From Methanosaeta sp. PtaB.Bin018 (GTDB lineage Archaea > Halobacteriota > Methanosarcinia > Methanotrichales > Methanotrichaceae): 64,000 nucleotides of DNA. Under the pieces are notes generated by a model. The model ran no database searches. It was not told the DNA's origin and worked only from the letters and a program-made list of their open reading frames with translations. A program made the position numbers and the translations under genes. The stretch lies in contig MVQH01000077.1 in assembly GCA_002067755.1 (NCBI GenBank), positions 1,425-65,424 on the forward strand. The letters are read 5' to 3'. The number at the start of each line of letters is the position of its first letter. Position 1 is the first letter of the stretch. Below, in pieces: positions 5,823-43,949 of the stretch.

Positions 5823-5895
5823 CTAGCCCTTAGCCTCCCAGTCTTTTCCAATCTCATAAGTCAGCTCTGAGGATATAGGACTTTCCGGATCTCAG

Positions 5896-29739: not shown

Positions 29740-30440
29740 AAACTGCGCGCGGCCACCCCCGCCCTAAAGGACGGGGTATGCTTCGGGCCGCGCGCCCGGT
29801 TAGCCGGAATTCAGAAATCATCGAGTCTTCGTTGCCCTGACCACCTCAACTTTCGTGATTGGAACTCTATTTTCTGTTTTCCCTGAAAATCCTTGATATA
29901 ATGCTGGATAGTATCAGTGGTGACATTTCCAACAGACCGAAAAAATTTTCCAGCAGACCATAGACTACCACCCCAATATTGCTTTCTCAATTCAGGATGA
30001 AGCCTGAACAATCTATAAGAGCTACCTCCTTTTAAGTACTGAATTGCTTCTGACAGAGAGGTTGATGGGTGAAATTCCAAGAACAGGTGAACATGATCCT
30101 CAACTATTTGCATAGCATGGATTTTATATCCCTGCTTTATACAAATATTGCTGAGGACTAACTCGCAATCCTTTTTAACTTGGCTATTGTTGAATATTCT
30201 GTATCGATACTTTGGCACCAATACGATGTGGTATGTTATCTGGCCAAAGCCATGGCTAAAGCTGCGCAATTCCAATGCGTATCACATCCTAGCCATAGGT
30301 GGCTGTCACCACCTGTGGCTAAGGTGCCAAAATAATCTCATGTTCAATATATGTAACGTCAAACGGATTCAAGAAGCAGAAAACTGGGCGAGGGTTCACT
30401 TCATCCCCAACCTGAAGGTTGGGGGATTCGTGACCCTCCG
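29740..30440 (-). mobile_element. IS200-type minimal insertion sequence (IS200/IS605 family, tnpA only)
   Basis: About 700 bp. A Y1 transposase gene is flanked by subterminal hairpins. The 3' side has GCGCGCGGCC...GGCCGCGCGC (29745-29795). The 5' side has ATCCCCAACC-tgaa-GGTTGGGGAT (30403-30426) nested in GGGTTCAC/GTGACCC (30392-30436). A 12-bp imperfect stem (30291-30320) lies 16 nt upstream of the ATG. No tnpB. Exact ends are not determined. Confidence 0.7.
29811..30275 (-). CDS. tnpA: IS200/IS605-family Y1 (HUH) transposase TnpA
   Basis: 154 aa with YHIVLVPKYRYRIF and the HUH motif (DHVHLFLEF); typical size. Confidence 0.9.
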   Translation of the reverse strand: MELRSFSHGFGQITYHIVLVPKYRYRIFNNSQVKKDCELVLSNICIKQGYKIHAMQIVEDHVHLFLEFHPSTSLSEAIQYLKGGSSYRLFRLHPELRKQYWGGSLWSAGKFFRSVGNVTTDTIQHYIKDFQGKQKIEFQSRKLRWSGQRRLDDF

Positions 30441-30581: not shown

Positions 30582-30615
30582 TTTAAGTAAAATAAATTGA
30601 TTTTAAGTAAAATAA
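30582..30615 (+). promoter_or_regulatory. Two copies of TTTAAGTAAAATAA spaced 20 bp start-to-start, upstream of the first beta-propeller gene
   Basis: Exact 14-bp direct repeat at 30582-30595 and 30602-30615, 41-74 nt upstream of ATG 30656. Either a duplicated TATA-like element or a regulator site. Confidence 0.35.
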
Positions 30616-30655
30616 CATAGAATAACGGCTCAAATCGAGCGTCTGGGGTGCGCAG

Positions 30656-33043
30656 ATGGCTGAACAGAAACCGTCTAAGAATACGAGAGCGTTTATCACC
30701 ATTATCATATCGTCTTTGATAGCTTTCAATTCTTTGATAGCTTTCAATATTACTAACGCGTCAGACTGGCCGCTGTTCAAGAAGGATGTTTTGAACTCCG
30801 GCATAAGTTCCGATCGCGTTCCAAGCACTCCCGTGATACTGTGGTCTGCTGACATACAGAGGATGGAGACCACACCCATTATCTCCTCCGATCTGGTCTA
30901 TGCTCTTACGGGTAACGGTTCTGTCTGGGCCATTGACAAGGAGACCGGCAAATCGAGATGGCTGTCCCAGTTGGAGGGTTGGGTCTACCAGATGTCTACA
31001 CTGGCAAGCAGCGGAGAGAAAATCTTCGCTGCCACCGATTCGGGATTGCTAGCGGCCTATGATGCTCTGACAGGACGAGTGCTCTGGGTGAGGAGTCTGA
31101 CGGATAAGAGGTTCGAGGCACCAATAAACTATATAGACGGTCGGCTATACCTGGGAGAAGGAAGCGCCTACGGATCTGGCAAAAAGAGGTTCTTCTGCCT
31201 TTACGAGAACGGCACAGAGTGCTGGAATGTCTCTCGAAATACTAAGGGCTATCAATGGTGTGGGGCTGCTCAGGCTGGCAGTTATCTGGTATTCGGCCAG
31301 AATGACGGTGTCCTTTTGAGCGTGAACCGCCACAGTGGAGAGGTGGCCGATGAGCTGAGCCTGATCAACAGCTCCAGACTGAGCTTCTCTCAAGATAGAG
31401 CGGGAAGAGTTCGCGCATCCGTGGCCTTCAATGACAGCTACGTTTACGTCACATCCGAGTTCTCGGCAAAGGAAGGCTTTGCCTGGAAGATAGGCCTGGA
31501 TCCGAATACGGGCAAGTTCGAGGACCGCGGGTGGAGCTCCCCCGTGGGGTTTTCCACATCTACCCCTTCAGTCTGCAACAACCGGGTTTACATGGGCGTG
31601 GGCGAGCACGGACATCCCGGTGCCCTGGTCTGCCTTAACGATTCTTCCGGCGATCTGATCTGGTCCTATCCTGTGGAGGCAGGCGTGAAATCATCTCCAT
31701 CCGTATCGACGGCTTATGAGAAGCCTAGGATTTTATTCACCACTGCAAAGGTCGATGGCTATGTCTACTGCATAGAGGACAGTGGAGAAAAAGCTGTTCT
31801 ATTGTGGAGGTTGGATCCGCCCGATCCTGGCTACCTCTTGGGAGGCATATCCATCTCAGATGGTAGGATTTACTTCGGAACCGAGGGCGACCAACATTAC
31901 GGCAAACTGTACTGCCTTGGCGATGAATATGACGATGTTGAGGGCTGGACTCAGTTTCACAGCAACCCGCAGCATCATGGGTACAGCAGCACTAAAGCCC
32001 CCAGGTCCAACAAAACCGCCTGGATAAGCGAGGATATAGGTGCTCAGCCGGGATCTTCAGTCACTGTGGCCGAAGGATCGGTATTCGTGAATTGCGTTCA
32101 CAATCTGACCTGCCTAGATCAGAAGTCTGGAGAGGTGCTCTGGACATCTCCATTCAATGCCTCAGGAGACTATGCATTTGGATTTACCCCGGTTTACAGC
32201 AGAGGCCGGGTCTTCTTCACATCAGACAAGACTTACTGCCTGAACGCACAAGATGGCAGTGAGGTCTGGAGCTTTTCTCTGCCCACCGACAAGTTTGCAA
32301 TCGACGGTAGCCCGGCAATAGTTGACGGCAAAGCAATCGTCAGCGACTGGGATGGTCATCACTACTACTGCCTTGACGAGGTTACTGGAGAGGAACTGTG
32401 GAACTTCACCGTCGAGGGCAATGCTCAGTCTACCCCAGCCATCGACCAGGGAAGGGTGGTCTTTGGCAGCTGGGAGTGGGGCCTTGGCGGCAAGGTCTAC
32501 TGTGTCGACCTCAGAGATGGCTCAGAGATCTGGAATATGACAACCAAAAACTCACCATGCGGCTCGGCGACGATCGAGAACAAAACAGTCTACATGGCCA
32601 CCTACAACTTCGAAGGGGACGGCGATCTCCTGGCCATGACATTAGACAGCGGTTCTGTTCAATGGATGGCACAAGTAAGCCCCACCGACTCGACCCCTGT
32701 TGTGGTCGACGGGAGGGTCTATTTATGCGGAGGATGCGATGGTTTTTCCGAGCTTGTAACTTACTGCTTCGATGCGAATAGCGGCGAGCTCATATGGAGT
32801 ACATCGCCCAAAGAGAGCATCGGCGACTGGAGATGCTCTCCTGCCTTTGCTGACGGCCTGCTGTTTGTCGGAAGGCCGAATTTCATAGAGTTTAGAGGGA
32901 CTTTTGCCCTGAACGCCACTTCTGGCGAGGTGGTCTGGAGCTATCCAGAGGGAGGCTCATCTCCATCTCTGGCCGGCGGGATGCTCTTCACCATTGGCGG
33001 CGGCAGAGTCTATGCTTTTGGTGATGATTTATTGGAGGAATGA
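30656..33043 (+). CDS. Exported PQQ-like (BamB-type) beta-propeller repeat protein with two propeller modules
   Basis: 795 aa with an N-terminal hydrophobic segment. Each module opens with WP(L/Q)F..-type motifs (DWPLFKKDVLNSG; WTQFHSNPQHHG). Repeated ...G.V.A.D..TG...W blades. Confidence 0.8.
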   Translation: MAEQKPSKNTRAFITIIISSLIAFNSLIAFNITNASDWPLFKKDVLNSGISSDRVPSTPVILWSADIQRMETTPIISSDLVYALTGNGSVWAIDKETGKSRWLSQLEGWVYQMSTLASSGEKIFAATDSGLLAAYDALTGRVLWVRSLTDKRFEAPINYIDGRLYLGEGSAYGSGKKRFFCLYENGTECWNVSRNTKGYQWCGAAQAGSYLVFGQNDGVLLSVNRHSGEVADELSLINSSRLSFSQDRAGRVRASVAFNDSYVYVTSEFSAKEGFAWKIGLDPNTGKFEDRGWSSPVGFSTSTPSVCNNRVYMGVGEHGHPGALVCLNDSSGDLIWSYPVEAGVKSSPSVSTAYEKPRILFTTAKVDGYVYCIEDSGEKAVLLWRLDPPDPGYLLGGISISDGRIYFGTEGDQHYGKLYCLGDEYDDVEGWTQFHSNPQHHGYSSTKAPRSNKTAWISEDIGAQPGSSVTVAEGSVFVNCVHNLTCLDQKSGEVLWTSPFNASGDYAFGFTPVYSRGRVFFTSDKTYCLNAQDGSEVWSFSLPTDKFAIDGSPAIVDGKAIVSDWDGHHYYCLDEVTGEELWNFTVEGNAQSTPAIDQGRVVFGSWEWGLGGKVYCVDLRDGSEIWNMTTKNSPCGSATIENKTVYMATYNFEGDGDLLAMTLDSGSVQWMAQVSPTDSTPVVVDGRVYLCGGCDGFSELVTYCFDANSGELIWSTSPKESIGDWRCSPAFADGLLFVGRPNFIEFRGTFALNATSGEVVWSYPEGGSSPSLAGGMLFTIGGGRVYAFGDDLLEE
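30713..30748 (+). repeat. Perfect 18-bp tandem duplication inside the signal/anchor segment
   Basis: TCTTTGATAGCTTTCAAT occurs twice in tandem, encoding SLIAFN-SLIAFN. Confidence 0.9.
32339..32569 (+). repeat. Copy 1 of a ~231-bp near-identical segment shared by two adjacent propeller genes
   Basis: Matches 33544-33774 with 3 mismatches by eye. Encodes VSDWDGHHYYCLDEVTGEELWNFTVEGNAQSTPAIDQGRVVFGSWEWGLGGKVYCVDLRDGSEIWNMTTKNSPCGSA. Flanking sequence is far more divergent. Confidence 0.9.
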
Positions 33044-34254
33044 TAATGGAGAATTACATCGTTAAACTCGCGGGCTGGAAAACAATAGCTCTATTGATTT
33101 TCTGGCTCATCATTCAGCCTGTTGTATGTAGCAGTGACCTGGATTGGCCACAGTTCCACATGAACCCACAGCATACGGGCAACGCAAGCGTCAACGCTCC
33201 AGATGCGGCCCTTCTGGCTTGGAAGAGCGAAGCAATCGGCGCTCAGGAGGGGTCATCTGTATCGGTGGCAGAGGAGAAGGTATTCGTAAACTGCGTCAGC
33301 AATTTGACCTGTCTTGACCTGCGAACTGGAAAATTGCTATGGAGCACTGCCTTCACCCCCATGGACGATATCTGTCAGGCATTTGGCTGCTCGCCGGCAT
33401 ATCATCAAGGCAAGGTCTTTCTCTCCAGCCAAGATACCCTCTGCCTTAATGCATCTGACGGAAAGGTGCTGTGGATCTTTACACCTCCCACGAAAAGGGG
33501 TGCATTGGATGGAGGACCAGTGATAAGCGACGGCTTCGTTCTGGTCAGCGACTGGGATGGTCATCACTACTACTGCCTTGACGAGGTTACTGGAGAGGAA
33601 CTGTGGAACTTCACAGTCGAGGGCAATGCTCAGTCTACCCCAGCCATCGACCAGGGAAGAGTGGTCTTTGGCAGCTGGGAGTGGGGCCTTGGCGGCAAGG
33701 TCTACTGTGTCGACCTCAGAGATGGCTCAGAGATCTGGAATATGACAACCAAAAACTCGCCATGCGGCTCGGCTGCCATTTGGCAGAATGTGACCTGGGT
33801 TACCACTTACAACTTCGAAGGAGATGGAGAAGTCATGGCCATCTCACTCGAGGACGGGAAACTTCTCTGGGAGAGGACCATTCAGAGAACGGACTGTACC
33901 CCCACGCTTGCCAGCGGACGGCTATATGTTTGTGGTGGTGCCGATGGCTTCAGCGACAAGGTCACCTACTGCTTCGATGCCTCTAGCGGCGAACTTCTCT
34001 GGAATACTTCGAAGGAGGAGGAGATCGGCGAGTGGAGATGCTCTCCTGCCTATGCGGACGGCCTGCTGTTTGTGGGCAAGACAGATAGCAAGAGCTCCAC
34101 ATACGATACCCTCTGTGCGCTTAATGCCAGTACAGGTGATATTGTATGGAGCTATCCGGCAAGCGGATCGGCCCCGGCAGTTGCCTATGGAATGGTATTC
34201 TCCATAGGCGCAGGCAGGGTCTACGCTTTTGGGCCTGGAGGCAGCAGCACGTGA
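33040..34254 (+). CDS. Exported PQQ-like beta-propeller protein, single module, paralogous to the C-terminal half of the upstream gene
   Basis: 404 aa with an N-terminal hydrophobic segment, then DWPQFHMNPQHTGN. ATGA start/stop overlap with the upstream gene. Confidence 0.8.
   Translation: MIMENYIVKLAGWKTIALLIFWLIIQPVVCSSDLDWPQFHMNPQHTGNASVNAPDAALLAWKSEAIGAQEGSSVSVAEEKVFVNCVSNLTCLDLRTGKLLWSTAFTPMDDICQAFGCSPAYHQGKVFLSSQDTLCLNASDGKVLWIFTPPTKRGALDGGPVISDGFVLVSDWDGHHYYCLDEVTGEELWNFTVEGNAQSTPAIDQGRVVFGSWEWGLGGKVYCVDLRDGSEIWNMTTKNSPCGSAAIWQNVTWVTTYNFEGDGEVMAISLEDGKLLWERTIQRTDCTPTLASGRLYVCGGADGFSDKVTYCFDASSGELLWNTSKEEEIGEWRCSPAYADGLLFVGKTDSKSSTYDTLCALNASTGDIVWSYPASGSAPAVAYGMVFSIGAGRVYAFGPGGSST
33544..33774 (+). 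repeat. Copy 2 of the ~231-bp near-identical segment
   Basis: See 32339-32569. Confidence 0.9.
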
Positions 34255-37200
34255 GGATATCTGATGCCAAAAATTTGGGAGTCTGCATCCCTCTGATCTT
34301 TTTTTTATTTGGATTGATGATGCAGGCCAGTGCAGACTTCACCACTTTTCACGGTGATAACCAGAGGACTGGCAACGTAAGCGGCAACTATCCTGATGAA
34401 CCCCATGTTCTCTGGAGCGCGAGCCCGACAGGTCACGGCTACATTGGCGCTACAGCTGCCATATCTGGCATTAGAGTTTACATCTCCAACTGGCCGGATA
34501 TGACCTTCAAAGGGGAGCTTGGGCTTGCATGCCTGGATGAAGAAAATGGGACAGTCCTCTGGCTCAATTCGCTTGGCGGCAAAGGTGGAGCCTCAACTCC
34601 TGCCATATCGGATGACAGGGTCTTTGTCGGCTCACTTACGGGAGACCTTTACTGCCTTAACTCCACTACCGGAAAAACATTGTGGAACCGCACTCTAGAT
34701 AAAAATCCGGGGTGGTGGGGAGTGGCATCATCGCCTCTGGTTCAGGGTGAGACGGTATACGTCATGAGTTTCTCAGACGGAGCTATTCATTCTCTGGATC
34801 TGGATGGAAAGGAGATGTGGAACATGACCACGGGTCGGATTCATCCCTTCGCATCAGCTGCATCATCAGGCAGAAGGCTTTACTTCCCCGGTGGCGATCC
34901 GGCACTGTACTGCATCGATGCAACCTCAGGAGAGCTGGTATGGAAAGCCCCGCAAGAGTCTCAGATCACAGCCACCCCAGCCCTCTGGAACGATCTGGCA
35001 TTCATTGTTACTGAGAAAGCCCTTAAGGCCCTAAATGCCAGCACAGGCCAGGAGATCTGGAAGGTAGCCATCAATGGCACGATGTCTTCGCCTGCCATCT
35101 CTTTCGATAGGGTCTATGTCGGATCGGATGACGGATCCACGGGCCACTTGGCCTGCTTTAATGCCCAAAATGGCTCACAGGTTTGGAGAACGGAGGTCAA
35201 CGGCCCAGTCAGATCCTCGCCTCTGGTCGGGGATGGGAAGGTCTACTTCGGAACTAATACAGAGGCTGGAGTCATCTATTCACTGAATGCCTCCAATGGG
35301 TCTGTCGCCTGGAGCTACCCCGTCCATCAATATGTTATGGCCTCTGCTGCTGGATCCGATGGCGTCATCTTCATAGGGTCCGATGATGGCCTTCTCTACG
35401 CCTTTGGTTTTATGCCGAAGGGGCATCTCCGGAATGGAGACATTCAGCATGATGATGAATCAGTCAAATTCAATATCACAGCACACACAACTCGCCCAAA
35501 TGCACTTTTCATTACTGTAGGCAACCATCCTCAAATAGAAGTGGCCTCCCAAAATGCTGCTCTTAATGTGACCTTGGCTCCACCAACCAATGTCTCGAAC
35601 TTATCCTCTTATGACCTAATATTCCTGGAGATGCTCGGGGCAGAGGATGTTTCAAATCTTGCGCCCCTGATCGAGGATGCTAAAAAAAAAGGCGTTCCTG
35701 TAATAATACTAAACTCTGGGGGCTATGAAGACCTTGGCAATGTGAATTTATCGGATCATCCTAAAATTCAAGAATACTGGGACTACAGCGGCATTGAGAA
35801 CATGAGACGACTCTATTCCTACCTGGCAGCACGCATATTGGGCTTAAATGTCAAAGTAGAGGAGCCCGTACCCACCCCAAAAGAATACATATACCATCCA
35901 GATTCAGCTGAGATCTTCGATAACCTCTCACATTATTTGGACTGGTATGAGAATAAACCCGGACATCGTTACAATCAATCAGCTCCAACTATTGGCATAT
36001 TGAGCTATTATACAGACCTGGGACAAATAGACATTAACCGTCTCATCTCTGCCTTGGAGAGAGAGGGAGCAAACGTCATAGGCGCAGGATTCTCCAACAC
36101 ATCGACCATCAAAAGGCTCTTCTTCAAGAACGGAACGCCTATCGTAAACGCCGTGATACTCACCAAGTCCTTCCGGATAAATTATGGTGATGCAGATCAG
36201 GGTGTCTCGGATTTAGAAGACCTAAATGTTCCTGTGCTACGTGCAATGAGGTTATACTACCAGACTGCAGAGCAGTGGACAAATGCGTCCAGCATCGAGC
36301 CGATAGAGCTCTATTTCCAGGTCGCTCAGCCTGAGATGGATGGGGTCATTGAGCCCATTGTAATCTCAGGCAGAGACGAGACGATCTATGCTCCGGTGGA
36401 GAGCCAGATCGAATGGATAGCCGAACGGGCCTTAGCCTGGGCAGAGCTGGAAAGAAAGCCCGAGTCGGACAGGAAGCTGGCCATCATCTATTATAATCAC
36501 GCGGCTGGCAAGGACAACCTGGAAGGCTGCTACCTCAATGTTCCCCGCACCCTAGAGAATATCCTGGAAGGCCTGAACAGATCGCTATTCAAGGTGCAGG
36601 GAAGCATTCCAGATGAGAAGGACCTGGTAGATCTCCTGGCCCACGAGGGAACCAACATTGGATCCTGGGCCCCAGGTGAGCTTTTGTCGATGGTCGATAA
36701 GGGGAATGCAACTTTAATTCCTGCCGAAGAATACCTCTCCTGGTTTGAAACCCTGCCCGCAAACAGACAGGAGGAGACGATAAAACACTGGGGACCACCG
36801 CCAGGCGATATAATGGTCTATCAGAACGAGAGCGGAAAATATATTGTCATTCCAAAGCTCTCCTTTGGAAATGTCATTTTGCTGCCTCAGCCCACCAGAG
36901 GCTGGTTGGAGAACAATACAGTACTTTATCACTCCACCGACCTTCCTCCTCATCATCAGTACATAGCCTTCTATCTCTGGCTCAAAAATGGATTTGGCGC
37001 TGATGCCATAGTCCATCTGGGAAAACATGGGACTCAGGAGTGGCTGCCCGGCAAGGAATGCGGCATATCCAGAGATGACTGGCCTGCACTTCTCATCCAG
37101 GACCTGCCTGTGGTCTACCCATATATCGTCGACAACATTGCCGAAGGGACGCAGGCCAAGCGCAGGGGAGATGCTGTGATGGTCACCCATCTCACTCCGC

Positions 37201-39470
37201 CAATTGTTGCCTCCGGGCTATATGGCAACCTGACAAACCTTGCACAGACGGTCTTCGAATACAAGAGTGTGCAAAACGCCAGCGTGAAAGAGGGCTACAA
37301 GAGACAGATCATCAACATCAGCAGGGATATGCATCTGGACGAAGATCTTGAGGTGGATCTGAATCTTATCTCTTCAAATTCTACCAGCTTCGATGTCTAT
37401 GCAGATGATCTGGAAAGATATCTTTACGATCTTAAGAACCAGTTCATGCCATACGGACTTCACACCTTTGGCAAGCCTCCTGAGGGCAGGGCTCTGGTGG
37501 GCATGGTGAAGTCCATGCTGGGAGAGGGCCTGTCCAAAGAGGTTGCACACATGATATCATACAGCGATTATCCAAACATCACGCGCCTTGACAAGGAGAA
37601 TGAGCTCGAAAACTGCGAAACAAAGCTGCTTTCACTGGTAGTGATCAACGGGACTCTTCCTGATTATGCCCAGATGGCGGTTTTGAATAATGTCTCAAGA
37701 AACCTGTCTGATCAGCTAAATCTATCTCTGGCATATGCACAGAACATTCGAGCCTGCCAAAGAGAGGTGAGAAGCCTCGTAAGTGCCTTGGACTCCAATT
37801 ATACATCGCCTTCTCCAGCCGACGATCCTATTCGAGATCCAGAGGTTCTTCCTACCGGACGGAACTTCAGGTCACTTGATCCGCGCAGGGTGCCAACAAG
37901 TGCTGCCTGGGAGGTAGGCAAAAATCTGGCTGAAAAGATCATTGAAGAATACAGGCAGGATCACAACGGTACTTTTCCAAGAAAGCTGGCGATGGTGCTC
38001 TGGGCCTGGGCCATGACTGATCACGGTGTTGTGGAATCGGAAATCCTCTCTTTGATAGGGGCAAAGCCAGTCTATGACGGCTACGGTGGAGTGTGTGACG
38101 TAAAACTTGTACCGCTCTCCGAGCTCGGCAGGCCCAGGATAGATGTGGTGGTCGTGCCTTCAGGCCTTGACAGAGATCTGTTTCCAGAGAAGCTCCAGCT
38201 AATAGACAGAGCTATCAGACTGGCCAGCAACGACAGTAGCACAGAGTATTCCAACTTTATCCGAGAGAACTCAGAAAAGATATTCCAGGAGCTGATGGCC
38301 ACAGGAAATGTGAGCGAGAGTGATGCACGAATCCTATCCACCTCCAGGATATTCCTGGAAGAGGCAGGGACATACGGTCCCAACCTCGACGCTGCAATAT
38401 CTGCCAGCAATGCCTGGGAGAATGACACAGTGCTTGGCAACCTCTTCATAAAGAGGATGTCTTACATCTACGGCGATGGGATCTGGAGCAGCAAGCTGGC
38501 CTCCGGAGAGGACCTATCTCCCTTGCAAGAGGATCTATACAAGACCAATCTTCAGGAGGTAGAGGCAGCAGTCCATCACACCAACTCCAACCTCTACGGA
38601 TTCATAGACAACGACGACGTCCTCCAGTACCTGGGAGGCATAGGGCTGGCGGTGAGAACTGTCAGTGGAAAAACACCTGATATGTACGTCACCGATGCCA
38701 GAGATCCTGAAAGCACAGCAGTATCATCGTTACACAACTTTTTCTCCAAGGAGCTTCGGGCACGTTACTACAATCCTCAGTGGATCAAAGGGATGATGGA
38801 GCAGGGCTACTCAGGTGCCAGGGAGATGGACAAGTTCGTTGAAAACCTGTGGGGCTGGGAGGCTATGCTTCCCGATATGGTCTCTGAGGCTGTCTGGAAT
38901 GAGGTGCATGATGTCTATGTAAGGGACAAGTATGATCTCGGCATGAAACAGTTCTTTGACCAGAACAATCCCTGGGCATCTCAGGCCCTCGAAGGGAGAA
39001 TGCTCGAGACTGCCAGGAAATGTAGGTGGCACCCAGACCAGGCTACAAAGGCAGATCTAGTCCGGGAGTACCAACGATCGGTAAAGGATTTTGGTGTGAC
39101 CTGCTGTCACCACACCTGCGGCAACCTACTGCTAAACGAGTACATGAGTGGAATTCTCCCTGCACAAGACAGACAAGACGGCTCCAGACAGAGCGACTCG
39201 AAGCCAAGCCATAAAAGCTCCTCGTCCAAACGCTCCTCTCCAGGGGGCGCTTCTGGACGCTTCAACACAACGAAGTCGAGCGGTGTGGGCACAGCGTCCG
39301 CAAAGCCTGTGGAAAAGACACAGTCAGCCTCAGAAGAAGTGCAGGGCATGGTCATGGAAAGCCCTTCGAACGACATCTCTCTGCCATCCATTTCTGGCGC
39401 GCCGCTCATGGGTGTGGCCTTGGTGCTTGTCATGTTGCTGTTCATGATCGCAGGATTCAGGAGAGGCTGA
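34251..39470 (+). CDS. Exported fusion protein: PQQ-like beta-propeller, then a CobN/ChlH-type (class I) chelatase large-subunit domain, then a Ser-rich linker and a C-terminal TM anchor
   Basis: A GTG at 34251 (GTGA overlap with the upstream stop) gives the signal-like (M)RISDAKNLGVCIPLIFFLFGLMMQASA. The propeller module starts FTTFHGDNQRTGN. The CobN-type core includes HLGKHGTQEWLPGKE, DPIRDPEVLPTGRNF and AVHHTNSNLYGFIDNDD. The C-terminus is SSSSKRSS...PLMGVALVLVMLLFMIAGFRRG. I count about 35-40 N-x-S/T sequons by eye along the whole length. Confidence 0.85.
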   Translation: MRISDAKNLGVCIPLIFFLFGLMMQASADFTTFHGDNQRTGNVSGNYPDEPHVLWSASPTGHGYIGATAAISGIRVYISNWPDMTFKGELGLACLDEENGTVLWLNSLGGKGGASTPAISDDRVFVGSLTGDLYCLNSTTGKTLWNRTLDKNPGWWGVASSPLVQGETVYVMSFSDGAIHSLDLDGKEMWNMTTGRIHPFASAASSGRRLYFPGGDPALYCIDATSGELVWKAPQESQITATPALWNDLAFIVTEKALKALNASTGQEIWKVAINGTMSSPAISFDRVYVGSDDGSTGHLACFNAQNGSQVWRTEVNGPVRSSPLVGDGKVYFGTNTEAGVIYSLNASNGSVAWSYPVHQYVMASAAGSDGVIFIGSDDGLLYAFGFMPKGHLRNGDIQHDDESVKFNITAHTTRPNALFITVGNHPQIEVASQNAALNVTLAPPTNVSNLSSYDLIFLEMLGAEDVSNLAPLIEDAKKKGVPVIILNSGGYEDLGNVNLSDHPKIQEYWDYSGIENMRRLYSYLAARILGLNVKVEEPVPTPKEYIYHPDSAEIFDNLSHYLDWYENKPGHRYNQSAPTIGILSYYTDLGQIDINRLISALEREGANVIGAGFSNTSTIKRLFFKNGTPIVNAVILTKSFRINYGDADQGVSDLEDLNVPVLRAMRLYYQTAEQWTNASSIEPIELYFQVAQPEMDGVIEPIVISGRDETIYAPVESQIEWIAERALAWAELERKPESDRKLAIIYYNHAAGKDNLEGCYLNVPRTLENILEGLNRSLFKVQGSIPDEKDLVDLLAHEGTNIGSWAPGELLSMVDKGNATLIPAEEYLSWFETLPANRQEETIKHWGPPPGDIMVYQNESGKYIVIPKLSFGNVILLPQPTRGWLENNTVLYHSTDLPPHHQYIAFYLWLKNGFGADAIVHLGKHGTQEWLPGKECGISRDDWPALLIQDLPVVYPYIVDNIAEGTQAKRRGDAVMVTHLTPPIVASGLYGNLTNLAQTVFEYKSVQNASVKEGYKRQIINISRDMHLDEDLEVDLNLISSNSTSFDVYADDLERYLYDLKNQFMPYGLHTFGKPPEGRALVGMVKSMLGEGLSKEVAHMISYSDYPNITRLDKENELENCETKLLSLVVINGTLPDYAQMAVLNNVSRNLSDQLNLSLAYAQNIRACQREVRSLVSALDSNYTSPSPADDPIRDPEVLPTGRNFRSLDPRRVPTSAAWEVGKNLAEKIIEEYRQDHNGTFPRKLAMVLWAWAMTDHGVVESEILSLIGAKPVYDGYGGVCDVKLVPLSELGRPRIDVVVVPSGLDRDLFPEKLQLIDRAIRLASNDSSTEYSNFIRENSEKIFQELMATGNVSESDARILSTSRIFLEEAGTYGPNLDAAISASNAWENDTVLGNLFIKRMSYIYGDGIWSSKLASGEDLSPLQEDLYKTNLQEVEAAVHHTNSNLYGFIDNDDVLQYLGGIGLAVRTVSGKTPDMYVTDARDPESTAVSSLHNFFSKELRARYYNPQWIKGMMEQGYSGAREMDKFVENLWGWEAMLPDMVSEAVWNEVHDVYVRDKYDLGMKQFFDQNNPWASQALEGRMLETARKCRWHPDQATKADLVREYQRSVKDFGVTCCHHTCGNLLLNEYMSGILPAQDRQDGSRQSDSKPSHKSSSSKRSSPGGASGRFNTTKSSGVGTASAKPVEKTQSASEEVQGMVMESPSNDISLPSISGAPLMGVALVLVMLLFMIAGFRRG

Positions 39471-39557
39471 AGGCGTAAAGATTATTATCATCATATTTTT
39501 CCTTTAATCAACAAAACTTGCGTAAGCGTTATATCCAACCAGGATGATTTTAGACAA

Positions 39558-40250
39558 TTGGTGTCCTCATTGGAGCTCTCATCGATTACTGTTAGTGGTA
39601 TCTTGATAGGCATTCTTATCTTTGCATTTAAAGTCAGCCTTGGCTGTGGCATGGCCTGCCTCAGCCGTCGTGAAACTCTGTTAATAGCTCTCAGCTATAT
39701 GGCACTGGCCAGCCTGATGGGTGTCATCATTGGATTCATACCGAATTCGGTCTTCTTTTGGCTGCTGAACGCTGGGGTGGCCATGCATGCCGTCATCGCC
39801 TTGCTACTGGTCACCTTGGGCGTGATTACTGCTAGGGAATGGAACCGTGAAGGCCATGATATCTCTCGTCGCACCTTCTGGGCCCTGTCCTTTCCCTGTC
39901 CGGCCTGCATGGCCGCAACTTTCCTATCCTGTAGCTTTCTTGTAGGCGTTTTAAATGTTGCCTCTTGGATGATAGGCCTTGCCGTGGGAGCGGTCTTTCT
40001 CGTATCCATCATCGGGCTATCTGAGCTGTTTCGAAAGAGTCACAGGACGCCATCTGATATGGGCAATGCCATGATATTTCTAGGGCTTTTTTATATTTTA
40101 TCAATGCTGGTCATCCCTGCTTACCTCGGCTCTAAAATAGCTTCAACGCCTTCGGAGATGCCCTCAGTAAATGCTGTCTACATTTATGGATTTCTTTTTG
40201 GAATGGTGCTTCTGGGATACCTGAGCAGGAGGATGGGGGTCGCCAAATGA
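39558..40250 (+). CDS. Polytopic membrane protein (DUF2162-like predicted transporter) with an intramembrane CPAC motif
   Basis: 230 aa with ~6 hydrophobic segments. SFPCPACMAATFLSC is encoded at 39897-39908. TTG start as tracked. The DUF2162 assignment is from memory of methanogen annotations. Confidence 0.6.
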   Translation: MVSSLELSSITVSGILIGILIFAFKVSLGCGMACLSRRETLLIALSYMALASLMGVIIGFIPNSVFFWLLNAGVAMHAVIALLLVTLGVITAREWNREGHDISRRTFWALSFPCPACMAATFLSCSFLVGVLNVASWMIGLAVGAVFLVSIIGLSELFRKSHRTPSDMGNAMIFLGLFYILSMLVIPAYLGSKIASTPSEMPSVNAVYIYGFLFGMVLLGYLSRRMGVAK

Positions 40251-40888
40251 TGGGCATCTACGATACATGCGAATACATGCTCTATGTATTCTCAGATGCC
40301 ATGCTTTATCCAGATATGATCGGGCTGATCCTCCTATTTGGCTGGTCTCTAACCCTGGTAGGATCGATGGTTCATGATTTCACCACCCGTAATAGAGATC
40401 TCGAGAAGATTGAGGAGATATGTTTTCAGGCGGCGGGTCTTGTGCGATCTGGCCGGACGGATCAGGCTGCAGCAAAGCTCGGCAGCTATGGGTCCAAGAC
40501 GCTTGTCTCCCGGGTTTTAAAGGAGATGGGAGATGCCATTTTGGTTGGGACCTTCCACCTGAAGTTCGAGAAGATTTTGCAGGATGCAGAGATCAGCATA
40601 GACAAATCACTTGAGCTCATTCGGATCGGTGTCAGGATAGGACCAATGCTGGGGCTGATGGGAACACTGATACCCCTGGGACCAGCACTTCTTGGCCTGG
40701 CTCAAGGCAATATCAAGCAGCTTTCAGACAGCCTGGTGATAGCTTTCACCACCACTGTGGTGGGCATAGTGGTGGGAGGGATATGCTACTGTGTTGCGAC
40801 AATAAGGACGCGATGGTACCGTCAGGACTTGAGCGATCTGGAGTATGCAGTCGACATCCTCAGGAGCGAGATTGATGAGGGGGCGTAG
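40247..40888 (+). CDS. MotA/TolQ/ExbB-family proton channel protein
   Basis: C-terminal signature GPMLGLMGTLIPLGPALLGLA...SDSLVIAFTTTVVGIVVG. ATGA overlap with the upstream gene. Confidence 0.8.
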   Translation: MMGIYDTCEYMLYVFSDAMLYPDMIGLILLFGWSLTLVGSMVHDFTTRNRDLEKIEEICFQAAGLVRSGRTDQAAAKLGSYGSKTLVSRVLKEMGDAILVGTFHLKFEKILQDAEISIDKSLELIRIGVRIGPMLGLMGTLIPLGPALLGLAQGNIKQLSDSLVIAFTTTVVGIVVGGICYCVATIRTRWYRQDLSDLEYAVDILRSEIDEGA

Positions 40889-41231
40889 GTATTTCAGCGA
40901 GGCTGCTCCATGGAATGAGGACCCCATGAGCGGGCTGTCTAATATCTTCGACGCTGCCATGGTCTTTGCTCTTGGGTTCTTGCTGGCGCTAGCAGTCTCG
41001 TACAGCATCCAAGAGATGCTCGATCCTCAAAGCACAGTGACTTTGGTCAAGAATCCAGGAGATCCCGATATGCAGATAATCATCAAGGACATGGATAAAA
41101 TTCAGGTGCTGAACATGACCGACAAGATTGCTGGAGGACAGGGCACAAAGATGGGAACAGCCTATCGCCTGGAGAACGGGCAGGTGGTCTATGTGCCGGA
41201 GAACGCCACTTCGCCCTCAGTTCAGAGTTAG
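40875..41231 (+). CDS. Single-pass membrane protein (DUF2149-like), ExbD/TolR-like in topology
   Basis: ATG 40875 overlaps the ExbB-like gene by 14 nt. The TM segment LSNIFDAAMVFALGFLLALAV carries an Asp at its start, as ExbD/TolR do. A ~80-aa extracytoplasmic domain follows. Confidence 0.55.
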   Translation: MRGRRYFSEAAPWNEDPMSGLSNIFDAAMVFALGFLLALAVSYSIQEMLDPQSTVTLVKNPGDPDMQIIIKDMDKIQVLNMTDKIAGGQGTKMGTAYRLENGQVVYVPENATSPSVQS

Positions 41232-41422
41232 GGCAGCCCCATTGATAATTTCTCATTTAGTTCCTGATCATCGGCATATTTCACCTTGTTTTTGGTGCTA
41301 TTTGGGTTATTAAATGATCAAAAGATGCTAATTTTAATCTTAGTCCAAAAAGTTTAAATAAAATCATTATAACTTGATCTACTTGATTTGTATTAACAAA
41401 AATTAATTTGAGGTAGAGAGGG

Positions 41423-42943
41423 ATGAAACATTTGGCTTTGGCGCTATTTTGCGTTTTTTTACTTACACTCACAACAGCATCGGCAGAGGTAACGGCTCAA
41501 ATAACTGTTTTTTGTAATGGAGGTGTAGTCTACGACAATGCTGTGACGGTTACTGGTTCGAATCCCACTGCCTGGGACGCCATTCGGGCAAGTGATGTGG
41601 GCTATGATTATACCGACTATGGTGGATGGATTTTTATAAATAGCATTGCAGGATGCGGCGGAAGCTGGGGCCCCGCATTTTATGTAAATGGAGCCGAGTC
41701 CGATGTAGGCGTCAACAGTTACTACATAGAAGATGGCGATCATCTTCAGTTCATTGGGCCGAACAATGGCGGACCGACAGCAGGCATCCTGTATCTTGCT
41801 GTGCTTCCGGATGTTGTAGCCAAAGGCGAAGGCTTCAGGGTCAAAGTAATGGAAAAATCTGCATACTCATATGGGGGCTATGATCGCCCATCAGCAGGCG
41901 CAACAGTCACCATAGGCAATGAGACCTTCGATACAGGCAGCGACGGCTACACAGACGAGATCGTCCTCGACTATGACGCCTATTATTGCGTAGCCGCAGA
42001 GAAGGGCGGATATGTGGCCACATATTACTTTTATGGCCTTCCGTATATTCAGTGTGGAGTTGGAGGGCCCTACATTTGTAGCGTTACTGGCGAAGGGTCG
42101 AAGAGAGGAAATATAAAGTACGACGAAGACTCATCGGTCAGCGGCGAAGGGTTCTGTTCGTGCCGATCCTACTTTGAAAATTATGGCGGAAAATATCCAG
42201 CACGCTCGACAAAGGCTTACCAAAAGGGATCTGGAAGCTACGACGCTGAGAGAATTATCAAGCAGAGGCCGAGTGGAATCGACCTCAGCGAATCAACGGA
42301 GATGAATTATCGTCCGACCACAGTTGAGGCTTATAGCCGGGATCTTAACTACAAATCCAATTACGAGGACAGCATATACCAGAAGAATTATCGTGGAGCC
42401 ACAGAATCCTCCGAGAGATATCGCCAACTGAATTCCCTTACGAAGACGAGCTATTATAACAATAGCCGAGGAATCAATTACTCTTTCACGGCGAACTTTC
42501 AGGGAATAGCTGAACTGTCTGCACGCACCCTTGAGGACGAGGCCTTCTTGGACTGGAGAGAAAAGGCTCGGCCTAAGGAAGAGTCTATTGAGACTTACAT
42601 CGGCAACTTCCAAATTTCCCGAAGAGGTTTTCTCCCGATGGGTGGGAACGATGAAACGGATTGCGAAGAGGACTGCAAATGGAATTGTAAAAAGCATTGC
42701 ATGGAGGACGAGGGATATAGCGAGGAGTACTGCGAAGAGCATTGCGGTGAGTATTGCGAAGATTATTGCGAGAACGAATCTACCTATGAGGATTATGAGC
42801 TTTTACCATGCTGTAGCGGTGGATGGTTCAATATGACAAAGGCAGATCAGATTGGACATTCTGCCAAAGGCATCTTCGATTGCTCCTGCAAAATTACTGC
42901 GGCTCCAGTATTGATCGGCAAGAAGGCCAGTTCGAAGGCATAA
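41423..42943 (+). CDS. Secreted DUF4430-domain protein (transcobalamin beta-domain-like) with Ig-like middle region and a Cys/Glu-rich C-terminal region
   Basis: Signal MKHLALALFCVFLLTLTTASA. DUF4430-like block TAWDAIRAS...YGGWIFINSIAG...WGPAFYVNGAESDVGVNSYYIEDGDHLQF. Then CEEDCKWNCKKHC...YCEEHCGEYCEDYC. Confidence 0.65.
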   Translation: MKHLALALFCVFLLTLTTASAEVTAQITVFCNGGVVYDNAVTVTGSNPTAWDAIRASDVGYDYTDYGGWIFINSIAGCGGSWGPAFYVNGAESDVGVNSYYIEDGDHLQFIGPNNGGPTAGILYLAVLPDVVAKGEGFRVKVMEKSAYSYGGYDRPSAGATVTIGNETFDTGSDGYTDEIVLDYDAYYCVAAEKGGYVATYYFYGLPYIQCGVGGPYICSVTGEGSKRGNIKYDEDSSVSGEGFCSCRSYFENYGGKYPARSTKAYQKGSGSYDAERIIKQRPSGIDLSESTEMNYRPTTVEAYSRDLNYKSNYEDSIYQKNYRGATESSERYRQLNSLTKTSYYNNSRGINYSFTANFQGIAELSARTLEDEAFLDWREKARPKEESIETYIGNFQISRRGFLPMGGNDETDCEEDCKWNCKKHCMEDEGYSEEYCEEHCGEYCEDYCENESTYEDYELLPCCSGGWFNMTKADQIGHSAKGIFDCSCKITAAPVLIGKKASSKA

Positions 42944-42944
42944 A

Positions 42945-43949
42945 ATGAGGGATGACATGATTAAATTGTTTGGTGCAGTCCTTGCCTCAGTCGTGTTTCT
43001 TGGCATAGCAACAGGAACTATCGACGGTTCCGGAGAGAAGAATCCGGTGGTCACCAATGATTCTTTGGAATTGGGACTTCTTTCGATGTCTGATGGGCCG
43101 ATAGTTTCTGCAATAAATTATCTATCGTCCTGCCAGAATGAGGATGGGGGCTTTGGACCCGATCCAGAATCTGAGAGCAACATTAAAGATACAGCCATAG
43201 TTACAATTGCCTTTGCGTCTGCAGGCAAAAATATGTCGGATTTTGCCAAGGGTGGGAAGAACTCCCTTGATTATTTAATTGAGAGGCAGGCAGAACTCGA
43301 CAATTTAAGCAATGTCGAAGCCCAGGTAGGGCGATACGTGACTGCCCTCGCATCAGCTGGCTTGGATCCAAGGGATATCAAAGGCAAAAACTACGTGCAA
43401 ATCTTGAAAAGCTACTGTCGACCCGACGGTGAGGTGGGCAAAGAGTTCTACATCTGGGATGATGCATGGATCGTGATCGCCCTTGCCGCATGCAATGAGT
43501 CTCATTCAAATGAGGTGAAAAGTGCGCTCGAGCATCTGAAGAGCATACAGACAGCCAAGGGAGGTTGGGCCTGGAACGGAGGCACTAGCGGCGAGGACCC
43601 AGACACTGCAAGCATAATTTTATGTGCACTGATATGTGGAGGTGAAGATGCGGACTCCGATGCGGTCAAGAGAGGTTTGCAGTATCTTTCATCAGAGCAA
43701 AATGCAGATGGAGGGTTCTCATCCGTTGGATCCAACGCTGCTACCGATGGCTGGGCTATCATGGCCCTCAATGCTGCAGGCCAAAATCCCAGATCATGGA
43801 AGAAGGGATCCTCCGATCCTATCGGCCATCTGCTAAGCCTCCAGCAGGATGACGGCTCTATATGGTGGAAAAAGGATAGCAAGGGTTTTTCCTTTGAGTG
43901 GACTGCCAATGGGATAATAGCCTTGACCGGAGGGCGAATGCCTCCGTGA
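42945..43949 (+). CDS. Secreted prenyltransferase/squalene-cyclase-like alpha/alpha-toroid repeat protein
   Basis: N-terminal hydrophobic segment, then QW-type repeats: QNEDGGFG, QTAKGGWAW, QNADGGFS, QQDDGSIWW. Starts 1 nt after the upstream stop. Confidence 0.7.
   Translation: MRDDMIKLFGAVLASVVFLGIATGTIDGSGEKNPVVTNDSLELGLLSMSDGPIVSAINYLSSCQNEDGGFGPDPESESNIKDTAIVTIAFASAGKNMSDFAKGGKNSLDYLIERQAELDNLSNVEAQVGRYVTALASAGLDPRDIKGKNYVQILKSYCRPDGEVGKEFYIWDDAWIVIALAACNESHSNEVKSALEHLKSIQTAKGGWAWNGGTSGEDPDTASIILCALICGGEDADSDAVKRGLQYLSSEQNADGGFSSVGSNAATDGWAIMALNAAGQNPRSWKKGSSDPIGHLLSLQQDDGSIWWKKDSKGFSFEWTANGIIALTGGRMPP

Follow-up and report, generated by a model that had tools for sequence, protein, structure and literature searches.

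The locus at 30656-43949 of a 64-kb stretch of DNA from Methanosaeta sp. PtaB.Bin018 (contig MVQH01000077.1; the whole stretch of 64,000 nucleotides is called the window below) consists of eight genes, here labelled g1 to g8, which we think probable, by a modest measure, to encode a cell-surface system of the HmuS/BtuS type for salvaging metal from tetrapyrroles. As judged from sequence comparisons, this archaeal system (Methanotrichaceae, of the Methanothrix type) would be assisted by the ion-motive force and would take Co, Ni or Fe from corrinoid-like tetrapyrroles. The core is of a known kind, HmuS/BtuS with HmuU/V, whose archaeal homologues have been labelled and never analysed; what is new is a clade linked to DUF2162 proteins, with motifs of its own and in cells without an outer membrane, together with a propeller fusion and recurring DUF4430/toroid partners. 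All eight open reading frames (ORFs) lie on the plus strand, and their ends are exactly those given in the initial annotation of the window (lengths in amino acids, aa; TM, transmembrane):

g1, 30656-33043, plus strand: 795 aa; exported protein with two PQQ_2-type beta-propellers (residues ~37-430 and ~431-795)
g2, 33040-34254, plus strand: 404 aa; exported single beta-propeller protein
g3, 34251-39470, plus strand: GTG start, 1739 aa; exported, C-terminally anchored fusion of a propeller with a CobN/ChlH/HmuS-type protein
g4, 39558-40250, plus strand: TTG start; DUF2162 membrane protein in the 'T' position of the module
g5, 40247-40888, plus strand: 3-TM channel protein of the MotA/TolQ/ExbB family, homologue of HmuU
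g6, 40875-41231, plus strand: 118 aa; DUF2149 single-pass protein, homologue of HmuV
g7, 41423-42943, plus strand: 506 aa; exported protein with a putative DUF4430 / intrinsic-factor-beta-like N-terminal domain
g8, 42945-43949, plus strand: exported alpha/alpha-toroid protein (prenyltransferase / squalene-cyclase repeat fold)

In the hmuYRSTUV operon of the Bacteroidota, hmuS is annotated as 'cobaltochelatase subunit CobN', hmuT as 'hypothetical', hmuU as 'MotA/TolQ/ExbB' and hmuV as 'DUF2149' (PMC10434189, PMC11681262). HmuS was described in 2025, with a cryo-electron microscopy structure, as a membrane-bound periplasmic heme dechelatase that has TM helices at both ends, no AAA+ partner and catalytic residues with assigned roles (PMC12583661). 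The statement in the initial annotation that no function had been assigned to the combination seen here must thus be withdrawn, as its core is that of hmuS, hmuU and hmuV, and HmuS is a proven heme dechelatase (PMC10434189, PMC11681262, PMC12583661). Nor are the archaeal homologues without a label: 'BtuS' (Rodionov 2003) denotes a third CobN-like type with a predicted role in metalloporphyrin salvage, a name used by Rocha et al. (PMC6460266) and carried by two proteins of Methanosarcina barkeri that respond to the Fe/S source (PMC10846266). Apart from this M. barkeri label and a remark on the unclear function of archaeal CobN clusters, we found nothing in the literature on the archaeal module. 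Like hmuSTUV, the locus has an exported CobN/ChlH-like protein with TM helices at both ends, a catalytic His, Glu and Asp and no AAA+ partner, followed by a multi-pass protein of ~230 aa, a 3-TM MotA/TolQ/ExbB protein and a DUF2149 protein; HmuY and a TonB-dependent receptor are missing because there is no outer membrane. It differs from hmuSTUV in that g3 has DNDD, CCHHTC and an N-terminal propeller in place of the heme-ligand features of HmuS, and in that the archaeal locus adds propeller, DUF4430 and toroid proteins.

The g3 product is homologous to the H subunit of class I chelatases, and its closest solved relative is the heme dechelatase HmuS. It begins with a signal/anchor segment (residues 9-28), continues with a propeller (~30-420) and a chelatase body (~449-1706), and ends with a Ser-rich linker, a TM helix (1716-1736) and the sequence FRRG. 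The match to the Pfam family CobN-Mg_chel runs over its full length (E = 0, 1128 bits), and a search of the PDB placed HmuS (9d26, 530 bits) ahead of ChlH (468) and CobN (455); the C-terminal domain alone scored 156 bits against HmuS and 90 against CobN. Against HmuS of Prevotella nigrescens g3 scores 494 bits, and against a CobN-like protein of Trichlorobacter lovleyi, the closest among the bacterial relatives examined, 791 bits. The hydrophobic segments at its two ends carry basic residues on their cytoplasmic sides, which argues strongly, on sequence grounds, for a body of ~1,680 residues that is wholly on the outer side of the cytoplasmic membrane and, like that of HmuS, tethered at its C-terminus. 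We rejected a canonical biosynthetic CobN (CobNST) as an identity for g3, as the protein is predicted to be exported and anchored, a Walker-A motif scan found no AAA+ candidate in the window or recurring in 80 loci, and its scores against all the NCBIfam CobN equivalogs are below the cut-off (best 1223 vs 1619). CobNST and ChlHID share with g3 the six-domain fold of the H/N subunit and the active-site His, Glu and Asp, but they are cytoplasmic, soluble and dependent on AAA+ (I/S) and VWA (D/T) partners, whereas g3 is exported and anchored. That the window holds no ChlI/ChlD-type AAA+ partner, as the initial annotation had said, was borne out by a Walker-A scan of its ORFs, none of which is a candidate.

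Three short stretches of g3 carry the residues on which the comparison with HmuS and CobN turns:

g3 catalytic-site residues, 37026-37145, plus strand: His-926 (GKHGT) and Glu-965 (AEGT)
g3 DNDD motif, 38607-38618, plus strand: residues 1453-1456
g3 TCCHHTCGN motif, 39099-39125, plus strand: residues 1617-1625, near the end of domain VI

His-926 and Glu-965 align with H538/E577 of HmuS and H554/E593 of CobN, and DNDD keeps the Asp equivalent to HmuS D1208 and CobN D1100; in the 2026 CobSTN structure, CobN H554, E593 and D1100 surround two Co2+ (bioRxiv 10.64898/2026.07.21.739949). The catalytic His, Glu and Asp are strictly kept in g3 and in nearly all of its homologues, which argues for catalysis rather than for a non-catalytic binder. 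The features peculiar to HmuS are a different matter. Its site-1 heme ligand Met-79 aligns to a Leu in g3, with a conserved Met one residue earlier, as in most archaeal homologues; the second site-1 ligand, His-254, is replaced by Ser in g3 and by S/G/P in archaeal homologues; His-1209, a ligand of the Na1/metal site, is an Asp within DNDD, as in CobN; and the Met-rich insertion of ~120 residues in domain IV is missing, the g3 segment having 94 residues with 4 Met vs 249 with 31 Met in Prevotella. Conversely, TCCHHTCGN is invariant in the archaeal CobN-like proteins linked to the g4-g5-g6 trio and takes the form CC[DE]HTC in T. lovleyi and in a deltaproteobacterial locus (L086), and no motif of the CCHHTC type is found in HmuS by sequence alignment. 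It is a candidate site for handing off metal. We therefore define a DUF2162-linked, 'BtuS-like' clade as exported CobN-like proteins with DNDD and CC[HDE]HTC that stand beside DUF2162(PCPxC)-MotA/ExbB-DUF2149; g3, the archaeal loci, T. lovleyi and the deltaproteobacterial locus all have this set of features. By these motifs g3 is not HmuS proper and belongs to this clade, which by the same definition includes many archaea and some Desulfuromonadia and Deltaproteobacteria.

The genes g4, g5 and g6 encode a membrane trio. The product of g4 belongs to DUF2162 (Pfam, 4.7e-52, 177 bits), with 7 TM helices predicted from the positive-inside rule to run from an outer N-terminus to an inner C-terminus. 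An alignment of 19 sequences has an invariant P-C-P-x-C at residues 113-117, along with conserved C125, H77, C30, D101 and a GCG, and by the predicted topology the Cys cluster would lie in that half of the membrane that faces the cytoplasm. In this the PCPxC of DUF2162 is like the CPx sites at which P1B-ATPases bind metal; it could alternatively be read as a CxxC redox relay, which would bear on the physiological reductant of HmuS. The protein is homologous to the DUF2162 protein of T. lovleyi (hidden Markov model, 2.7e-32), and the DUF2162 model gave no match at E <= 10 to Prevotella HmuT, which is alike in position and size (230 vs 232 aa). The g5 protein belongs to MotA_ExbB (Pfam, 4.2e-10, 39.9 bits vs a cut-off of 22.9) and has the 3-TM layout of ExbB/TolQ, with the conserved TM2/TM3 motifs and conserved GPMLGLMGTLIP and AFTTTV helices; it matches HmuU of Prevotella nigrescens at 9.5e-32, or 1.1e-50 with a profile. 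In g6, a member of DUF2149 (Pfam, 2.5e-31, 108 bits), a basic N-terminus precedes a TM helix with conserved N23/F25/D26 and an ectodomain of ~65 aa; Asp-26, inside the helix, is at least 90% conserved, and the match to HmuV of Prevotella nigrescens is at 1.4e-25, or 2.1e-45 with a profile. The homology of g5 to HmuU and of g6 to HmuV is clear. The DUF2149 family is small, with 441 clusters at 50% identity among 1.84 billion representatives. The earlier description of g6 as 'ExbD-like' holds for its topology, its partner and its conserved TM Asp, and fails for sequence homology: hhalign of the DUF2149 profile with T. lovleyi ExbD gave a probability of 0.15, no detectable homology, on which g6 was rejected as an ExbD homologue, and against the PDB the profile found no ExbD/TolR and only chance-level matches, the best being a ComEA SLBB domain at E 0.14.

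How far this arrangement extends was seen from 80 loci, collected by a pattern scan with the g5 alignment over contigs of one genome per species and annotated by phmmer and jackhmmer; a sequence search with g5 had only Methanotrichaceae among its top 120 matches, and the wider breadth comes solely from the contig pattern scan. The order DUF2162-MotA/ExbB-DUF2149 is kept in Methanotrichaceae, Methanosarcinales, ANME-1/2, Methanomicrobiales, Archaeoglobaceae and some bacteria, so that the co-conservation across archaea on which the initial annotation depended is real and reaches beyond them. About 60% of the loci with full flanks have a CobN-like gene within 10 kb of the trio, on either side. 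Among 30 complete trio-linked CobN-like proteins, 28 have an N-terminal hydrophobic segment and a C-terminal TM helix, in agreement with the idea that the CobN domain is not cytoplasmic, and the 2 exceptions are cytoplasmic-type CobNs encoded several kb from the trio. The g4-g5-g6 trio is thus a conserved syntenic unit, usually beside an exported CobN-like gene. A ChlI/ChlD-like neighbour recurs nowhere in the 80 loci, as had been expected, within a Walker-A motif scan of greedily selected ORFs that could miss a divergent partner. Clustering of the neighbourhoods likewise found no ABC importer or FeoB consistently linked; most of the recurrent neighbours are lineage-specific housekeeping genes (fibrillarin/Nop, GHMP kinase, ParAB, glycosyltransferases). 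In Methanosarcinaceae/Methanomethylovorans (L063:4682-8926, L066:4688-8935), three to five CobN-like paralogues surround one trio, and one of them has lost the catalytic His (GTHGT to TIFSS) and the Asp residues of DNDD and kept CCHHTC, which suggests a non-catalytic, possibly binding, role for that paralogue.

As a separate observation from the same survey, in Thermoleophilia and relatives, which are monoderm Actinomycetota (L067-L079, L084), a toroid-containing protein of 600-680 aa is encoded directly upstream of the MotA/ExbB-DUF2149 pair. The pair is enlarged there, MotA/ExbB to ~340 aa and DUF2149 to ~195 aa with a Pro/Thr-rich tail, and no CobN gene lies within 10 kb of these loci. By gene order, this is a second, bacterial, association of a toroid with the motor pair.

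The contexts of the clade in bacteria bear on the ligand. On the T. lovleyi plasmid pGLOV01/pSZ77 (Glov_3667-3675) the gene order is TBDR-DUF2162-MotA-DUF2149-exported CobN-ExbB-ExbD-TonB-TBDR (TBDR, TonB-dependent receptor), and the cluster is flanked by cobamide biosynthesis genes. Tandem cobalamin riboswitches (107 and 65 bits, L091:5597-5788 and 5889-6063) lie directly upstream of the operon. This cluster is like the archaeal locus in having a CobN-like protein with DNDD and CC[D]HTC, exported and C-terminally anchored, and DUF2162 (PCPxC), MotA/ExbB and DUF2149 genes that follow one another as they do in the window; it differs by its TBDRs, its ExbB-ExbD-TonB set and its riboswitches, and by lacking the propeller fusion and the DUF4430/toroid pair. 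[quoted passage not shown] Elsewhere, a Firmicute (L042) has MotA-DUF2149 beside CbiQ/ABC_cobalt/CbiO, the deltaproteobacterial locus includes DUF4198, and the module of diderm bacteria has TonB-dependent receptors on its flanks. In the archaea, Methanosarcina spp. and Ca. Ethanoperedens encode a protein of 171-181 aa that joins an ArsR-type winged helix to a C-terminal DUF4430 domain; its gene stands divergently, 50-1000 nt upstream of the trio, at L057:6324-6866(-), L059:8307-8849(-), L080:8741-9262(-) and six more loci, and 7 of the 8 members scanned match PF14478 (best E 9e-9). We take this ArsR-DUF4430 protein as a candidate for a regulator that senses a ligand, and it may be the archaeal equivalent of the cobalamin riboswitch of bacteria. 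We draw a corrinoid/cobalt theme from the T. lovleyi riboswitches, the CbiQ/ABC_cobalt and DUF4198 neighbours, the fold of g7 and the fusions of toroid with DUF4430 described below, and the bacterial contexts lean to corrinoid, cobalt or nickel for the DUF2162-linked clade, as against heme/iron for the HmuS clade of Bacteroidota.

It is against this theme that one can weigh the simplest alternative, a straightforward archaeal HmuS, in which an extracytoplasmic heme dechelatase would release Fe(II) for import by FeoB and the surface proteins would be hemophore-like. HmuS is the closest solved relative of g3, the topology is alike, homologues of HmuU/HmuV are present, and a change of Fe/S source raises the BtuS proteins of M. 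barkeri (PMC10846266); the conserved Met just before the Met-79 position in most archaeal homologues can be read in the same way. But His-254 has given way to S/G/P and His-1209 to Asp, the Met-rich insertion is missing, the bacterial member of the clade is under cobalamin riboswitches and not iron control, and the accessory binder seems to be like intrinsic factor and not like HmuY. Given all of this, we regard a plain archaeal HmuS as unlikely.

The accessory binder is the pair g7 and g8, which the initial annotation had seen as a split transcobalamin-like protein. Of the domain calls made there, PQQ_2, CobN-Mg_chel, DUF2162, MotA_ExbB, DUF2149 and the toroid are all recovered in Pfam, and only DUF4430 in g7 falls short, at 22.0 bits, under the cut-off of 23.8. 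The call is partly rescued by structure: in the AlphaFold2 model (mean predicted local distance difference test score, pLDDT, 59), residues ~21-200, at 72-89, are alone reliable, and the best Foldseek match in the PDB is intrinsic factor-cobalamin (2pmv; probability 1.00, E 0.013, 101 columns). A 91%-identical homologue is named 'DUF4430 domain-containing protein' by NCBI, and the g7 sequence itself has no match in the PDB at E <= 10. The protein is laid out as a signal peptide, a DUF4430/intrinsic-factor-beta-like domain (~21-115), a beta-sandwich (~120-200), a low-confidence beta-rich region, an acidic CX3C-repeat helical hairpin (413-451, predicted) and LPCCxGGW (461-468). Matches of the beta-rich region to MACPF/porin folds were disregarded, the model being unreliable beyond the N-terminal ~200 residues. 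At 42659-42826 (residues 413-468) the CX3C repeat reads DCEEDCKWNCKKHC...YCEEHCGEYCEDYC, followed by LPCCSGGW, and hairpin and LPCC motif are conserved across the Methanotrichaceae homologues; the hairpin looks like an extracellular metal-binding element. The full-length g7 family, of 49 clusters, is restricted to Methanotrichaceae. The g8 protein belongs in Pfam to the SQHop_cyclase/Prenyltrans toroids and is modelled as an alpha/alpha toroid (AlphaFold2, pLDDT 89). Its best Foldseek matches are type II terpene cyclases, SHC, prenyltransferase beta and TED domains, with glycosidases also in the top 50; transcobalamin, intrinsic factor and haptocorrin are all missing from these 50, on which g8 was rejected as a specific relative of the transcobalamin alpha domain.

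The likeness to transcobalamin, intrinsic factor and haptocorrin, which combine an alpha6-alpha6 barrel with a beta domain (DUF4430), therefore lies in the toroid of g8 and the N-terminal domain of g7, whereas the two are here separate genes in reverse order, the toroid resembles terpene cyclases/prenyltransferases, and g7 has ~390 further residues, including the Cys-rich acidic hairpin. Single-chain fusions of toroid and DUF4430 do exist among the g8 homologues, as do SLH-anchored surface proteins, and one such fusion, in an archaeal genome, is followed by a gene like the S component of energy-coupling factor (ECF) transporters. What survives of the split transcobalamin is a putative intrinsic-factor-like domain in g7 and the precedent of the fusions, and the idea as a whole is weakly supported. 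In Methanotrichaceae, six paralogous loci have the pair next to the trio, in either orientation. The g7 and g8 models, the fusions and the ArsR-DUF4430 regulator together make it credible that binding domains of the DUF4430 type and the trio are functionally linked, and they make a corrinoid-like ligand plausible.

From the same evidence one could propose that the system captures and takes up corrinoids as such, with the CobN-like protein as a non-catalytic binder or chaperone and the trio moving the intact corrinoid or delivering it to a transporter whose genes lie elsewhere. In its two-domain architecture the DUF4430/toroid pair is like transcobalamin, with fused forms and in one case the adjoining ECF S-component-like gene; T. 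lovleyi has riboswitch control; some paralogues are kept despite the loss of the catalytic His and Asp; and a chaperone role has been proposed for P. gingivalis HmuS (PMC13227078). Against uptake of the intact molecule, the catalytic His, Glu and Asp are strictly kept in g3 and nearly all homologues, and DUF2162 is small (7 TM, ~230 aa), with a PCPxC that suggests a metal-ion site and not a path for a 1.3-kDa corrinoid. Moreover, Methanothrix synthesises its own cobamides. We doubt this proposal.

The genes upstream of the chelatase body bring in the propellers. PQQ_2 (Pfam) is found in g1 (3.9e-63, 6 matched stretches), g2 (5e-40) and the N-terminus of g3; PQQ-like propellers, one fused to the CobN domain, had been recognised before, but the count of three modules becomes four across three proteins, since g1 has two. 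The C-terminal half of g1 is 64% identical to g2, and over a tract of ~220 nt (32335-32555 / 33540-33760) the C-terminal propeller of g1 and g2 have 98-100% DNA identity, including an exact run of 98 nt (32456-32553 = 33661-33758), between flanks that are 55-65% identical. The tract, which gives an 81-residue identical block in the proteins, looks like a recent gene conversion between tandem propeller paralogues. Orthologues of g1 adjoin a homologous module in the Methanotrichaceae loci L008, L010, L012 and L029, five or more Methanotrichaceae loci have a propeller joined to the CobN-like body, and in the 80-locus survey both the fusion and free propellers near the trio are limited to this family. 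Propellers and the g7/g8 pair recur with the trio in its paralogous loci L008-L013 and L029, and both are, judging from this distribution, Methanotrichaceae additions. As an observation apart, two Methanosarcinales metagenome-assembled genomes (L064:2-13506, L065:1-8343) have MotA/ExbB-DUF2149 without DUF2162 amid multi-propeller surface proteins of up to 1,540 aa, so that a nearby CobN-like gene is not needed for the motor to be found with propeller proteins.

Observations of this kind could suggest that the trio is a general envelope motor with many unrelated clients and that the propellers, g7 and g8 are merely neighbouring surface, sheath or electron-uptake proteins, in which case the eight genes would not belong to a single system. 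The trio is indeed found without CobN, with propellers only or with a toroid only; both spacers of the locus contain promoter- or terminator-like elements; an IS200 element and the gene-conversion tract mark the region as plastic; and the PQQ-like surface propellers of Methanothrix have been discussed in connection with electron uptake (PMC10470525). Chance neighbourhood is nevertheless hard to square with the translational coupling inside the blocks, with the fusion of a propeller to the CobN-like body in those five or more loci, with the six independent paralogous loci that have g7/g8 next to the trio in either orientation, and with a DUF4430-type regulator beside the trio in another archaeal order, and we consider it quite improbable.

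The part played by MotA/ExbB and DUF2149 deserves separate treatment. In its resemblance to ExbB-ExbD-TonB, TolQ-TolR and MotA-MotB, g5 is a member of the family and g6 is a single-pass, N-in protein with a conserved TM Asp; the difference is that archaea are without TonB, Tol-Pal or a flagellar rotor for the motor to act on. To our knowledge, archaea have neither TonB nor TonB-dependent receptors. The trio is thus not simply a TonB energiser, all the more so because the T. lovleyi operon has its own ExbB-ExbD-TonB set, and since the MotA/ExbB-DUF2149 pair is kept with exported CobN-like proteins where there is no outer membrane, its job is probably not, or not only, to energise receptors. In a planctomycetotal locus (L073), a TonB gene takes the 'T' position next to the MotA/DUF2149 pair. 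One could imagine that the stator, a MotA/ExbB pentamer-type channel with DUF2149, mechanically drives the surface chelatase-like enzyme and so replaces AAA+ ChlI/ChlD (CobS/CobT), in which case it would dock through the TM anchor of the enzyme or through DUF2162. That the stator energises the chelatase itself is something we purely infer, and such a drive seems to us improbable. If true, it would be a previously unknown way to power tetrapyrrole (de)metalation and the first assigned job for the MotA/ExbB homologues of archaea, cells that lack an outer membrane, TonB, Tol-Pal and a proton-driven flagellum; to view HmuU/V of Bacteroidota as what energises the outer-membrane receptor HmuR would then be wrong or incomplete. 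The comparative picture challenges the textbook drawing of the hmu operon.

The motor also admits a reading in the forward direction, with Co/Ni inserted outside the cell into metal-free or degraded corrinoids or hydroporphyrins and the ion-motive motor in place of ChlI/ChlD, the extreme form being an ordinary CobN. This would suit the DNDD common to g3 and biosynthetic CobN, the presence of a motor where AAA+ partners were not found in the window or recurrent in the 80 loci, and the Rodionov-type proposals for B12-regulated CobN-like genes. However, the predicted extracytoplasmic location excludes a cytoplasmic biosynthetic role, and metal-free corrinoids have no known environmental pool. Methanogens insert Co and Ni by means of class II chelatases (CbiX/CfbA). 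In addition, the sole characterised exported member of the family runs in reverse (PMC12583661). We hold forward insertion to be very improbable.

Returning to the salvage of metal from tetrapyrroles, the proposed sequence of events would begin at the cell surface, where the four propellers and the DUF4430/toroid pair would capture a metallated tetrapyrrole, most probably a corrinoid or another Co/Ni tetrapyrrole shed by neighbouring cells. The CobN-like body would then strip the metal without ATP, the chelatase reaction being reversed as in HmuS, and the thiophilic metal would be relayed over Cys/His sites, namely CCHHTC of g3, possibly the CX3C hairpin of g7, and PCPxC of DUF2162, to enter the cell by import through DUF2162. 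The MotA/ExbB-DUF2149 channel may convert ion-motive force into a conformational step in the anchored enzyme or in DUF2162. As a rough weighting, we would place corrinoid/Co ahead of Ni tetrapyrroles, and heme/Fe last. The surface hypothesis of the initial annotation, which had named a tetrapyrrole or Co/Ni as the substrate, is in this way retained in its essentials, an exported chelatase-H homologue without AAA+ and with a MotA/ExbB channel in corrinoid/cobalt contexts, and given up in its claim that the combination was unassigned.

Several points weigh against this reading and explain why we do not put it more strongly. The identity of the ligand rests on context in distant bacteria and on a structural match of 101 columns with a marginal E of 0.013, the g8 toroid has no specific similarity to transcobalamin, and the sole archaeal expression data, for M. 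barkeri BtuS, point to iron or sulfur and not to cobalt (PMC10846266). Dechelatase chemistry is not confidently transferable to g3 because every HmuS-specific feature is missing (Met-79, His-254, the Met-rich insertion and His-1209), and its DNDD resembles that of the metal-inserting biosynthetic CobN. The hmuTUV operon can be called the same module for two of the three membrane parts only, given that Prevotella HmuT has no detectable relation to DUF2162, and DUF2149 is without detectable relation to ExbD. The trio also occurs without CobN within 10 kb (for example L014, L021, L039, L047 and L053, and in Methanimicrococcus), or accompanied solely by propellers (L064/L065) or solely by a toroid protein (Thermoleophilia), and may be a general motor with several clients. 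Lastly, the co-transcription of the three blocks of the locus is not assured, owing to the promoter- or terminator-like elements in its AT-rich spacers.

If the proposed salvage is true, the stripping of tetrapyrroles at the surface would be a new route of trace-metal supply, with consequences for methane emission and for how digesters perform. Few methane producers on Earth matter as much as Methanothrix, whose need for cobalt (corrinoid proteins), for nickel (F430, CODH/ACS) and for iron is very high and whose sulfidic habitats offer vanishingly few free metal ions. The Cys/His motifs (CCHHTC, PCPxC and the CX3C hairpin) and the candidate ligand-sensing ArsR-DUF4430 regulator offer testable entry points.

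The layout of the locus was read directly at each junction and is exactly as first annotated: ATGA overlaps join g1 to g2 (33040-33043) and g4 to g5 (40247-40250), a GTGA overlap joins g2 to g3 (34251-34254), g5 and g6 overlap by 14 nt (40875-40888), and g7 and g8 are separated by 1 nt (position 42944). The 1739-aa g3 with its GTG start and the 118-aa g6 were reproduced by independent gene calls on six metagenome contigs with an identical locus. Each soluble product begins, as had been noticed, in a signal-like manner, with a basic n-region followed by a hydrophobic segment, and an SD-like (Shine-Dalgarno) GGAGG stands upstream of g2. The GC content of the whole locus is 0.505, and the two spacers between the blocks, whose lengths and AT-richness had also been given correctly, are as follows:

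Spacer g3/g4, 39471-39557, no strand: 87 bp, AT-rich, GC 0.31
Spacer g6/g7, 41232-41422, no strand: 191 bp, AT-rich, GC 0.30

In the first, a T-run is followed by a TTATAT box ~25 nt ahead of the g4 start, and the spacer is a possible internal terminator or promoter; the second has T-runs, a TTTAAATA box and a GAGG Shine-Dalgarno ahead of g7, and is a possible separate promoter. An Rfam scan of the whole 64-kb window found no riboswitch, and no family, even tRNA, reached its gathering score.

Upstream of the locus, two ORFs at 26619-28547 (minus strand, 642 aa) and 28678-29418 (plus strand, 246 aa), which have no Pfam match at E <= 0.001, lie just ahead of an insertion element. This element encodes an IS200-like Y1 transposase (29811-30275, minus strand; Pfam Y1_Tnp, 6e-36) 380 bp upstream of g1, and metagenome contigs with the identical locus often end just upstream of g1, as expected for a repeated element. 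Between the element and g1, the 14-mer TTTAAGTAAAATAA occurs twice in 30582-30617, with starts 22 nt apart and 40-75 nt upstream of the g1 ATG, and this repeat could serve the first block as an archaeal TATA box or as an operator.

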